Assembly (NCBI RefSeq): GCF_016903815.1
Contig: NZ_CP069973.1
DNA from: Escherichia coli
GTDB taxonomy: Bacteria > Pseudomonadota > Gammaproteobacteria > Enterobacterales > Enterobacteriaceae
DNA: 64,000 bases
Direction: 5' to 3' (one strand)
Shown here piece after piece: positions 13,991-59,932 of this stretch. Position 1 is the stretch's first letter. Each line of letters begins with the position of its first letter. The translations under genes and the position numbers were made by a program. Under the pieces are notes generated by a model. It saw only the letters and a list, made by a program, of their open reading frames with translations. It was not told the origin of the DNA and searched no databases.

Positions 13991-14112
<122 letters not shown>

Positions 14113-37224: not shown

Positions 37225-37472
37225 AGTAAGTCCTTTCGTAAAACTTTCGTTTCATTTCGTTTTGCCTATTAACGCCTTTCTATTAAGCAAATGCAAGCCC
37301 ACCTTACCCATTGGCGCAAGCTACTCTCGTTTCAGTGGCTTTCATTATGTTTCTTTTGTGAATCAGATCAGAAAACTATTATCTTTCGTTTTATTTTTAT
37401 CTCACCATGGCGCAGTATCAACTGAAACAAAACGAAAGATTAATATCGCAGTAATCTGAACTGGAGAGGAAA
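37225..37472. promoter_or_regulatory. agaR/kbaZ divergent control region with repeated AgaR-type operator motifs
   Basis: Repeated tttcgtttcatttcgtttt, tctttcgttttattttt and aaacaaaacgaaagatt blocks resembling the remembered AgaR site pattern (TTTCRTTTYRTTTY). Confidence 0.65.
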
Positions 37473-57965: not shown

Positions 57966-58844
57966 ATGAAATATTCCTTAGGGCCAGTGCTGTGGTACTG
58001 GCCAAAAGAGACGCTGGAAGAATTTTATCAGCAGGCCGCCACCAGCAGCGCCGACGTGATTTATCTTGGTGAAGCGGTCTGTAGCAAGCGCCGGGCAACC
58101 AAAGTTGGCGACTGGCTGGAGATGGCAAAATCGCTCGCCGGAAGTGGTAAGCAGATTGTGCTCTCCACGCTGGCGCTGGTGCAGGCATCCTCCGAACTGG
58201 GCGAACTGAAACGCTATGTTGAGAACGGTGAGTTTCTGATTGAAGCCAGCGATCTCGGCGTGGTGAATATGTGCGCTGAACGCAAACTGCCGTTCGTCGC
58301 CGGGCACGCGCTGAACTGCTACAACGCGGTGACACTGAAAATATTGCTCAAACAGGGCATGATGCGCTGGTGTATGCCGGTGGAGCTATCCCGCGACTGG
58401 CTGGTGAATCTGCTTAATCAGTGCGATGAGCTGGGCATTCGCAACCAGTTTGAAGTGGAAGTCCTGAGCTACGGTCATCTGCCGCTGGCCTACTCCGCCC
58501 GCTGCTTTACCGCGCGTTCGGAAGACCGCCCGAAAGATGAGTGTGAAACCTGCTGCATTAAGTATCCGAACGGGCGCAACGTGCTATCGCAGGAAAACCA
58601 ACAAGTGTTTGTACTCAATGGCATTCAGACCATGAGCGGCTACGTTTACAACCTCGGTAACGAGCTGACATCCATGCAGGGGCTGGTCGATGTGGTCCGC
58701 CTGTCACCGCAGGGTACTGACACTTTCGCGATGCTCGACGCCTTCCGCGCTAATGAAAATGGCGCGGCACCACTGCCGTTGACGGCAAACAGCGATTGTA
58801 ACGGCTACTGGCGGCGGCTGGCCGGGCTGGAGCTGCAAGCGTAA
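57966..58844 (+). CDS. ubiV: U32-family protein UbiV
   Basis: ORF 57948..58844; MKYSLGPVLWYWPKETLEEFYQQAATSSADVIYLGEAVCSKRR... (292 aa). Confidence 0.88.
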   Translation: MKYSLGPVLWYWPKETLEEFYQQAATSSADVIYLGEAVCSKRRATKVGDWLEMAKSLAGSGKQIVLSTLALVQASSELGELKRYVENGEFLIEASDLGVVNMCAERKLPFVAGHALNCYNAVTLKILLKQGMMRWCMPVELSRDWLVNLLNQCDELGIRNQFEVEVLSYGHLPLAYSARCFTARSEDRPKDECETCCIKYPNGRNVLSQENQQVFVLNGIQTMSGYVYNLGNELTSMQGLVDVVRLSPQGTDTFAMLDAFRANENGAAPLPLTANSDCNGYWRRLAGLELQA

Positions 58845-58850
58845 GTATAT

Positions 58851-58921
58851 AGCTCACTTTGTTAACAACTTTAACTACTCTTTAATGCAGTATTAAAGAT
58901 TAATCGGTAACAAAGTGAGCT
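58851..58921. other. nested inverted repeat (15-16-bp outer arms, 7-bp inner palindrome) in ubiV-yhbW spacer
   Basis: agctcactttgttaac (58851-58866) ... ggtaacaaagtgagct (58906-58921); inner ctttaat-gcagt-attaaag; AT-rich centre. Confidence 0.6.
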
Positions 58922-58924
58922 GTT

Positions 58925-59932
58925 ATGACTGATAAAACCATTCCGTTTTCGCTACTCGATCTGGCCCCTATTCCCGAAGGTTCTTCAGCGCGAGAAGCGT
59001 TCTCCCACTCTCTCGACCTCGCCCGTCTGGCTGAAAAGCGCGGCTATCATCGCTACTGGCTGGCTGAACACCACAATATGACCGGTATTGCCAGTGCTGC
59101 AACATCAGTATTGATTGGCTATCTGGCGGCGAATACCACTACGCTGCATCTGGGGTCTGGCGGCGTGATGTTGCCTAATCACTCACCATTGGTGATCGCC
59201 GAACAGTTCGGCACGCTTAATACGCTCTATCCGGGGCGAATCGATTTGGGGCTGGGTCGTGCTCCGGGTAGTGACCAGCGAACCATGATGGCTCTACGTC
59301 GTCATATGAGCGGCGATATTGATAATTTCCCCCGCGATGTCGCGGAGCTGGTGGACTGGTTTGACGCCCGCGATCCCAATCCGCATGTGCGCCCGGTACC
59401 GGGCTATGGCGAGAAAATCCCCGTGTGGTTGTTAGGCTCCAGCCTTTACAGCGCGCAACTGGCGGCGCAGCTTGGTCTGCCGTTTGCGTTTGCCTCACAC
59501 TTCGCGCCGGATATGTTGTTCCAGGCGCTGCATCTTTATCGCAGCAACTTCAAACCGTCGGCACGGCTGGAAAAACCGTATGCGATGGTGTGCATCAATA
59601 TTATCGCCGCCGACAGCAACCGCGACGCTGAATTTCTCTTTACCTCAATGCAGCAAGCCTTTGTGAAGCTGCGCCGTGGCGAAACCGGGCAACTACCGCC
59701 GCCGATTCAAAATATGGATCAGTTCTGGTCACCGTCCGAGCAGTATGGCGTGCAGCAGGCGCTGAGTATGTCGCTGGTGGGTGATAAAGCGAAAGTGCGT
59801 CATGGCTTGCAGTCGATCCTGCGCGAAACCGACGCCGATGAGATTATGGTTAACGGGCAGATTTTCGACCACCAGGCGCGCCTGCATTCGTTTGAACTGG
59901 CGATGGATGTTAAGGAAGAGTTGTTGGGATAG
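58925..59932 (+). CDS. yhbW: luciferase-like (LLM-class) flavin-dependent monooxygenase
   Basis: 335-aa [64 protein letters not shown]... Confidence 0.9.

Follow-up and report, generated by a model that had tools for sequence, protein, structure and literature searches.

The spacer between ubiV and yhbW was analysed in a 64,000-nucleotide stretch of Escherichia coli DNA (contig NZ_CP069973.1 of RefSeq assembly GCF_016903815.1; hereafter termed the window, in whose numbering all positions are given). This 80-nt spacer is probably a bifunctional element that acts as both DNA and RNA. The favoured model, in which our confidence falls somewhat short of even, nests the yhbW promoter in a fold-back hairpin that caps the ubiUV mRNA and blocks translation of yhbW on read-through RNA. 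The element is real, conserved and functional, and its RNA form is supported by the ends of in vivo transcripts; a promoter placed within a hairpin is the coherent logic that we infer for it.

A nested inverted repeat in the ubiV-yhbW spacer

The ATG of yhbW lies at 58925, such that the spacer occupies 58845-58924 (i.e. 80 nt) and contains the whole of the finding. Over a test stretch, the window was 100% identical to E. coli strain 7/2. An inverted-repeat search detected perfectly complementary 14-nt arms at 58851-58864 (AGCTCACTTTGTTA) and 58908-58921 (TAACAAAGTGAGCT) separated by 43 nt. The outer stem extends to 16 bp by pairing of 58849-58864 with 58908-58923, and its left strand starts 5 nt past the TAA of ubiV. 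A preliminary description of this DNA had reported a nested inverted repeat with 16-nt arms that were complementary at 15 of 16 positions, and these arms correspond to the perfect 14-nt arms plus two bases. The inner CTTTAAT-N5-ATTAAAG palindrome that it reported is likewise present, within 58876-58902, as part of 11-nt arms (58876-58886 and 58892-58902) with 91% complementarity. A core that is conserved between genera, TTAATGCAGTATTAA, sits in this inner palindrome. The features that define the structure are:

58842-58844, + strand: TAA stop codon of ubiV (yhbV), from the list of open reading frames, the sequence and the RefSeq annotation
58849-58864, + strand: left (5') arm of the outer stem, with its perfect part at 58851-58864, from the repeat search and the fold
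58876-58902, + strand: inner palindrome or inner hairpin, TACTCTTTAAT-GCAGT-ATTAAAGATTA, from the fold and the repeat search
58908-58923, + strand: right (3') arm of the outer stem, with its perfect part at 58908-58921, from the repeat search and the fold
58925-59932, + strand: yhbW, a luciferase-like (O2- and FMNH2-dependent) monooxygenase of the MarA/SoxS/Rob regulon, from the list of open reading frames, annotation and literature

Both strands were folded as RNA and compared with shuffled controls, beyond which both structures lay. The + strand had a minimum free energy of -26.7 kcal/mol (z = -5.5 relative to dinucleotide shuffles, with 0/200 shuffles as stable) and the - strand one of -27.2 kcal/mol (z = -6.5). 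The outer stem still formed when folded in 161- and 231-nt contexts. Only three inverted repeats with arms of at least 14 nt located no more than 120 nt apart were present in the 64 kb of the window, the ubiV-yhbW spacer included. The structure of the spacer is more than chance. A search of Rfam 15 with the E. coli spacer gave no match at the gathering score and merely sub-threshold hits to microRNA-like hairpins, and seven orthologous loci similarly gave no family match.

Conservation of the arms across genera

Orthologous ubiV-yhbW regions were compared from Escherichia albertii, Citrobacter, Salmonella, Superficieibacter, Pluralibacter, two 'Enterobacter sp.', Cronobacter, Franconibacter, Atlantibacter, Entomohabitans, Mangrovibacter, Buttiauxella, Tenebrionibacter, the Cedecea-like 'Klebsiella sp. 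BIGb0407' and metagenomic relatives. A scan of metagenomes with AAAGTGAGCSGTTATG produced predominantly chance matches and six useful loci only. One match to a putative Klebsiella pneumoniae metagenome-assembled genome (L073) was rejected as a GC-rich paralogue on a mis-binned contig rather than an ortholog of yhbW.

The arms were kept at the orthologous position in ~15 enterobacterial genera, in agreement with the conservation proposed as a check in the preliminary description. The left arm was nearly invariant (GCTCACTTTGTTAAC) in 17 distinct orthologous sequences and began 4-7 nt past the ubiV stop in most genera; the right arm ended 4-5 nt upstream of the ATG in every genus compared. The arm-to-arm span was 69, 70, 78, 89, 93, 118, 124, 133-134 or 141-143 nt depending on genus and exhibited no helical phasing, which rules out a dimeric operator of fixed spacing and helically phased looping. 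A palindromic operator for a dimeric regulator was rejected as a candidate for the same reason, the half-sites having no fixed spacing. The distance from the left arm to the conserved core TTAATGCAGTATTAA was exactly 15 nt in all genera compared, with a sequence that was not conserved, and the core-to-right-arm side of the loop differed by ~75 nt among genera. As read from this comparison, a constant length with a free sequence is the product of promoter geometry and would not be needed by an internal loop of RNA. The segment in question is:

58867-58881, + strand: 15-nt spacer separating the left arm from the core, fixed in length and variable in sequence, from the genus comparison

Substitutions within the stem bear on the form in which the arms pair. 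All one-sided stem transitions across genera (12/12 cells, from ~5-7 independent events) produced G.U on the + strand and none produced A.C. If only DNA mattered, A.C would be as likely as G.U to arise from one-sided transitions. Compensatory changes were observed at one pair (A-U, G.U or G-C) and at the outermost pair (A-U or G-C), and RNAalifold recovered the outer stem from short-form spacers and from long-form ones (see below) alike. The asymmetry of G.U over A.C is suggestive and favours pairing as RNA.

Insertions of ERIC, REP and ccdA sequences were all located upstream of the left arm and left the interval from the left arm to the ATG intact, indicating that this unit travels with yhbW. 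The ERIC insertion was present in 1423/5426 E. coli genomes and also in E. albertii, REP-like insertions were present in Salmonella and some Citrobacter, and a ccdA gene was inserted in Tenebrionibacter. In E. coli Ecol_517, an ERIC/IRU element of ~125 bp (L001 453-577) is inserted precisely where the left arm begins (i.e. window 58850/58851) with the arm untouched, and E. albertii (L008) has a longer variant of ERIC at this site. The same slot is used by REP/BIME-like palindromic units found between the ubiV stop and the left arm in Salmonella (L084-L086, ~1320-1420) and in Citrobacter-like loci (L168 and L175). A different event was observed in E. coli M19 (L002 2840-4300), where an IS110-family insertion sequence breaks the right arm after GGTAACAAAG (window ~58915) and the N-terminus of yhbW is gone, constituting a natural disruption of both the hairpin and yhbW.

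Many genera carry a 'long form' of the spacer with an extra ~65 nt, itself conserved, between the core and the right arm. This insert (L004, L009, L087, L090, L095, L098, L110 and L129; ~60-130 nt upstream of the yhbW ATG) has an ACAGC...GCTGT clamp together with a G+C-rich hairpin whose sequence varies and a GGAAGAAGACCTTCAATCTGATGAC that is invariant, and had no Rfam match. It would be situated in the yhbW 5' untranslated region (5'UTR) and could be a candidate for an undescribed cis-regulatory RNA that was lost by E. coli, Salmonella and Citrobacter. A small leader open reading frame within the insert was considered and rejected, as start and stop codons were not conserved and the nucleotides were identical instead of varying synonymously. 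The inner palindrome is kept in the long forms, with a double change from A-U to C-G in Cronobacter and L129.

A ubiUV transcript end next to the stem

Published SMRT-Cappable-seq data for E. coli K-12 contain a ubiUV transcript that runs from a transcription start site (TSS) at 3301438 to a transcription termination site (TTS) listed as 'novelTTS' at 3303449 (PMC6131387, Supplementary Data 1, 3 and 4). With K-12 position 3303448 (the yhbW ATG) equated to window position 58925, this end falls at 58926, 3 nt past the last paired base of the stem. Among 162 reads from the ubiUV TSS, 16 stop at the TTS itself, 53 stop no more than 50 bp beyond it and 28 continue past it (median extension, 76 bp); in the same study, b3160 (yhbW) was added to the RegulonDB operon b3158|b3159 (i.e. 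ubiU-ubiV) (PMC6131387). Transcripts from an upstream promoter that carry both arms hence exist in vivo among these reads. Both the published end at 58926 and the one-sided substitutions, which are G.U and never A.C, support the stem-loop in the ubiV 3'UTR that had been offered in the preliminary description as one of several possibilities. Two features are relevant to the fate of this transcript:

58926, + strand: 3' end of the ubiUV RNA (K-12 3303449), from SMRT-Cappable-seq Supplementary Data 1 (PMC6131387)
58934-59037, + strand: C-rich, G-poor start of yhbW, a putative Rho loading region, from base composition

The hairpin resembles an intrinsic terminator in its location at the end of an operon and in the adjoining transcript end. 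It differs in having no U-tract (the bases directly after the stem are GTTATGACTG, and the stem runs into GUUAUGACUG), only 5 G-C among its 16 pairs, a loop of 43 nt between the arms instead of a short G+C-rich stem with a small loop, and a 3' end just 3 nt from the stem. A terminator scan of 58400-59300 detected no intrinsic terminator, and the earlier exclusion of a classic one, made on the absence of a T-run, was correct. An end near a stem lacking a U-tract, accompanied by diffuse ends just downstream, is the pattern expected when termination is non-intrinsic (probably Rho-dependent) and a 3'-exonuclease then trims the RNA back as far as the stable hairpin; the end at 58926 would have arisen in this way. 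Most ubiUV transcripts that pass the hairpin stop within ~50-76 nt. The start of yhbW contains 35-37% C and 18-22% G over 58934-59037, a composition compatible with loading of Rho on untranslated read-through RNA.

Transcript 3' stem-loops of Rho-terminated or processed mRNAs share with the spacer the lack of a U-tract, a 3' end a few nt past the stem and diffuse ends further on. They differ from the spacer in that its stem is AU-rich, unusually long (16 bp) and nested around an inner hairpin, and in that its 3' strand is the ribosome site of the next gene. A rival explanation is that the structure is a ubiUV 3'-end hairpin only, stabilising or processing the mRNA, with the yhbW promoter present by chance and occlusion having no selected role. 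Rho-terminated transcripts are known to carry stable stem-loops at their 3' ends, as reportedly described by Dar and Sorek in 2018, and such a hairpin would account for a ubiUV end 3 nt past the stem and for the start of the hairpin right after the ubiV stop in most genera. What it leaves unexplained is that the 3' arm is always, in every genus, exactly the ribosome-site region of yhbW and that the complementarity of the arms is kept despite the ~65-nt insert of the long forms. Moreover, in Tenebrionibacter the element has remained next to yhbW with a ccdA gene lying between it and ubiV. We consider this explanation unlikely, albeit the strongest of the alternatives to the nested promoter.

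The ubiUV genes are activated by Fnr under anaerobiosis (PMC10470549). A full-text literature search with the arm sequences gave a single match, the ubiV deletion primer of this same study (PMC10470549). The 3' limit of this Wanner primer falls within the left arm and loop (window 58845-58860; K-12 compared as L003/L099). Standard ubiV deletions therefore take away or change the left arm and may do the same to the yhbW promoter, such that expression of yhbW may change, a point that bears on ubiUV phenotypes.

A putative activator-dependent promoter between the arms

YhbW is a luciferase-like monooxygenase that needs O2 (PMC6561319). The gene responds in the literature to activators of the MarA/SoxS/Rob type, being part of the MarA/SoxS/Rob regulon of E. 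coli and of the RamA regulons of Salmonella and Klebsiella, and purified RamA binds a Klebsiella yhbW promoter fragment with a 6.9-fold activation in vitro (PMC4310594). Levels of yhbW are lower in rob mutants (PMC7653855), and vanillin produces a 77-fold increase in YhbW protein and a ~13-fold increase in its mRNA (PMC6561319).

A position weight matrix (PWM) was derived from 33 published MarA chromatin immunoprecipitation sequencing (ChIP-seq) sites (PMC5684230). The left-arm 15-mer, in forward orientation, scored 8.4 bits, which is in the top 0.06% of window positions (~0.08 such hits being expected by chance in the spacer) and in the weak-to-middle range of genuine MarA sites. The right arm scored 3.9 bits on the - strand, a poor marbox. 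Promoter geometry was calibrated on micF and its annotated 5' end, where the 15-mer is located at -48 to -34 and 20 nt before the -10 hexamer TAGAAT. The yhbW left-arm 15-mer lies 21 nt from CAGTAT, in line with the spacing of a class II site, and the -10-like positions are conserved across genera as CAnTAT and TAyTAr. Regulon membership of yhbW, the forward marbox-like 15-mer and this spacing constitute the likeness to the class II marbox of micF; the left-arm 15-mer differs in having T rather than A at motif position 3 and C rather than A at position 15. The features of the putative promoter, together with a MarA site located further upstream, are:

58852-58866, + strand: GCTCACTTTGTTAAC, a forward-oriented 15-mer resembling a marbox and a candidate MarA/SoxS/Rob site of class II, from the PWM
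58888-58896, + strand: putative -10 of yhbW, either CAGTAT (58888-58893) or TATTAA (58891-58896), from conservation and micF geometry
58147-58161, - strand: MarA site inside ubiV, GCACAATCTGCTTAC, from ChIP-seq and in vitro binding (PMC5684230 Table 1), located by sequence

Because of the conserved spacing, the -10-like core and the micF-calibrated geometry, the TSS of yhbW is predicted at ~58899-58903, which would give a ~25-nt leader carrying the right arm only. A strict sigma-70 promoter scan of the spacer region found nothing. The preliminary description had suggested a dimeric regulator site bracketing the yhbW promoter. Bracketing of a promoter by the arms probably holds, as judged from the constant 15-nt spacer and the -10-like core between the arms; the span of 69-143 nt speaks against a dimer on both arms. 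As its synonymous positions vary freely in other genera, the MarA site inside ubiV is specific to Escherichia and unlikely to be a conserved regulator of yhbW. It may serve an internal or an antisense promoter, or may be non-functional.

These same data bear on whether the arms have a role as DNA only, being inverted copies of one protein site (for a MarA/SoxS/Rob-type monomer or a looping repressor) that flank the yhbW core promoter, with RNA pairing as a by-product. Such a view, which we regard as improbable, draws on the high conservation of both arms as sequence and the non-significant covariation between them, on the marbox score of the left arm, on the constant distance from left arm to core (a DNA-level constraint) and on the binding and activation of the Klebsiella yhbW promoter by purified RamA (PMC4310594). 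It does not fit with an arm-to-arm span of 69-143 nt lacking helical phasing, nor with a right arm that is a poor marbox (3.9 bits) placed downstream of the predicted start and over the ribosome site. A pattern of G.U and never A.C would not be expected if two proteins bound the arms independently, and the end of the ubiUV RNA beside the stem is a further observation against it.

Predicted occlusion of the yhbW ribosome-binding site

The right arm (58908-58923) holds the Shine-Dalgarno-like AAGUGAG of yhbW (~58913-58919) and stops 1 nt short of the AUG, such that the 3' strand of the structure covers the Shine-Dalgarno and start region of yhbW, as in fold-back inhibition of the IS10/IS50 type. 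Opening of 58911-58927 was calculated to cost 15.5-16.6 kcal/mol when the RNA reads through from upstream, against ~3.5 kcal/mol when it starts inside the loop at 58897-58903. On these energies, the hairpin is predicted to hide the ribosome site of yhbW on read-through RNA and to block its translation.

An alternative is that yhbW transcription starts upstream of the left arm and that the whole hairpin is a translational repressor in the yhbW leader, opened by temperature, a protein or a small RNA. The preliminary description had also listed a stem-loop in the yhbW 5'UTR; this now appears unlikely, since the right arm alone is predicted in the yhbW mRNA, and it is retained as a live rival. A MarA ChIP-seq peak with in vitro binding inside ubiV may mark an upstream promoter (PMC5684230), the TSS data searched contain nothing against such a start, and leader hairpins that sequester a Shine-Dalgarno sequence are well known, e.g. 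that of IS200 tnpA (PMC4513863). The intragenic MarA site is, on the other hand, not conserved outside Escherichia, whereas regulation of yhbW by this activator family is reported across genera. Sequences upstream of the left arm are unrelated between lineages (ubiV stop, ERIC, REP or ccdA), leaving no conserved upstream promoter. A barrier of ~16 kcal/mol is also a poor fit with a 77-fold induction of protein on a ~13-fold induction of mRNA, and no Rfam family was matched. A whole-hairpin leader is accordingly given about the same low credence as a DNA-only role. RyhB-seed mimicry by the left arm, with yhbW as a RyhB target, was tried as a separate candidate and rejected, the duplex energy being no better than that of 67% of window tiles.

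Translational coupling, in which ribosomes ending at the ubiV stop melt the hairpin, expose the yhbW site and tie YhbW to UbiV synthesis, would make use of a left arm that starts 4-7 nt past this stop in most genera. Ribosome helicase geometry suggests that a terminating ribosome should open just the bottom 2-4 bp of the 16-bp stem. The adjacency of stop and stem is lost in Salmonella, some Citrobacter, 26% of E. coli and Tenebrionibacter with the arms intact, and there is no obvious logic in tying an O2-dependent enzyme to an anaerobic pathway. Coupling is considered very unlikely.

The spacer is not a mobile repeat

The 80-mer was present at a single locus per genome in 5424/5426 complete E. 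coli genomes, the second 'place' counted per genome being the match of this self-complementary sequence to the other strand. The element was counted as present in 5423/5426 genomes of the species. No further copy of the 14-mer arm was found within the 64-kb window. The search for other genomic copies suggested in the preliminary description therefore returned one locus per genome, and its notion of a small-repeat remnant was not borne out, the element being single-copy in 5424 E. coli genomes and orthologously conserved. A remnant of a MITE-, REP- or ERIC-like mobile repeat can be put aside almost completely: terminal inverted repeats around an AT-rich core and the insertion of real ERIC and REP elements directly beside the spacer give it an appearance of plausibility that is opposed by single-copy status in 5424 E. 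coli genomes, by the lack of another copy in the window and by retention of position and sequence across ~15 genera.

The two other inverted repeats that were detected in the window lie elsewhere. One, at 14019-14079, has 17-nt arms (CTTATCCGGCCTACAAA and TTCGTAGGCCGGATAAG) and a REP/BIME-like look. The other, at 37381-37440, has 16-nt arms (ATCTTTCGTTTTATTT and AAACAAAACGAAAGAT) and lies in the agaR-kbaZ divergent control region; these are presumably the operator repeats of AgaR.

A proposed promoter nested in a fold-back hairpin

In the model favoured here, the spacer would function at the DNA level as a compact activator-dependent promoter for yhbW. The left arm (~-49 to -35) would be its marbox-like upstream element and would be followed by the 15-nt spacer and then by the -10-like CAGTAT/TATTAA inside the inner palindrome, with transcription starting near 58900. 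At the RNA level, the left arm would be an anti-Shine-Dalgarno strand found only in transcripts from ubiUV. Anaerobic transcripts of ubiUV driven by Fnr would hold both arms and, once the right arm is made, would form a hairpin of ~-27 kcal/mol just past the ubiV stop. This hairpin would become the stable 3' end of ubiUV: termination, diffuse and probably Rho-dependent, would take place within the first ~100 nt of yhbW, and exonucleases would then trim the RNA back to the stem; trimming is the likely origin of this end because the hairpin is without a U-tract. Burial of the yhbW Shine-Dalgarno sequence would mean that read-through RNA yields no O2-requiring monooxygenase under anaerobiosis, and the untranslated C-rich start of yhbW would become exposed to Rho. 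Firing of the internal promoter by SoxS, Rob or MarA would generate yhbW mRNA that lacks the left arm and is translated. We propose, more tentatively than the model as such, that the left arm has been conserved in the Enterobacteriaceae as an insulator between oppositely regulated units, being as DNA an activator site of the yhbW promoter, which is taken to respond to oxidative and xenobiotic stress, and as RNA an anti-Shine-Dalgarno strand that silences YhbW, promotes early Rho termination and caps ubiUV.

The following points weigh against this model. Firstly, covariation of the stem was not significant relative to column shuffles (34/500 for paired cells and 113/500 for the covariation score), a result that follows from the high conservation of both arms; the pairing may be carried by conservation of two sequences, each perhaps with a function of its own. 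Secondly, the right arm (ACAAAGTGAG) followed by the ATG is kept in Providencia, Brenneria and Erwinia without the left arm. For this reason the right arm is, on its distribution, seen as the older part, representing the translation-initiation region of yhbW, and the left arm as an addition by the Enterobacteriaceae that is complementary to it. Thirdly, the end at 58926 could be a degradation intermediate, with just 16/162 reads ending exactly there. Fourthly, the marbox score of the left arm is modest for a genuine site, as stated above, and a 19-mer marbox consensus matched the window at the level of chance (136 matches versus 140 expected) and was uninformative. MarA ChIP-seq in E. coli H10407 gave a peak inside ubiV ~760 bp upstream and none at the spacer (PMC5684230), a further difference from class II marboxes. 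Sites that prefer SoxS or Rob are missed by MarA ChIP-seq according to its authors (PMC5684230). Fifthly, no ortholog from Klebsiella pneumoniae was among the homologues listed, binding by RamA having been shown at a Klebsiella locus. Finally, no experimental TSS for yhbW was found in the published transcription-start data searched, so that the absence of the left arm from the yhbW mRNA is something that we only infer.

An observation adjoining the second of these points concerns Providencia (L092/L093, 1470-1500), in which YhbW shares 85% identity with its E. coli counterpart and the right-arm leader ATAACAAAGTGAGT is kept. The gene is found there in a different neighbourhood, without ubiV or the left arm, which suggests that yhbW was transferred together with its leader.

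Comparison with known fold-back systems

Fold-back inhibition of the IS10 and IS50 transposases, also termed 'protection from outside activation', was reportedly described by Davis, Simons and Kleckner in 1985 and by Schulz and Reznikoff in 1991. In these elements, the strand complementary to the transposase ribosome site is confined to read-through transcripts; the transposase mRNA proper begins within the structure and can be translated. By analogy, this mechanism is the closest precedent for the spacer model: an upstream strand is complementary to the ribosome-binding region of the gene, and both strands would be present together only in RNA from outside. The spacer differs in that yhbW is a chromosomal housekeeping or stress gene rather than a transposase gene, in that its 5' strand seems to double as a marbox-like activator site, and in that the ubiUV mRNA has its 3' end at this same hairpin. 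The chromosomal setting, the 5' strand doubling as an activator site and the combined 3'-end role would be the new twists of the model.

A second parallel is provided by IS200, where a stable stem-loop hides the Shine-Dalgarno sequence and the gene is shielded from outside transcription (PMC4513863). In that element, the occluding hairpin is in the 5'UTR of tnpA itself and a separate bidirectional terminator acts against impinging transcription (PMC4513863), whereas the spacer hairpin is proposed to perform both jobs and to lie outside the mRNA of yhbW.

Implications for neighbouring genes with opposite oxygen regulation

If the model is true, neighbouring genes on the same strand with opposite oxygen logic (i.e. 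anaerobic ubiUV and aerobic, stress-induced yhbW) would share 80 bp without a terminator. Insulation would take place after transcription, using for the upstream strand of the hairpin a sequence recycled from the activator site of the downstream gene. The fold-back logic of IS10 and IS50 would be extended to ordinary chromosomal genes. There would also be a concrete reason for the many 'novel TTS' hairpins without a U-tract that appear in full-length RNA sequencing.

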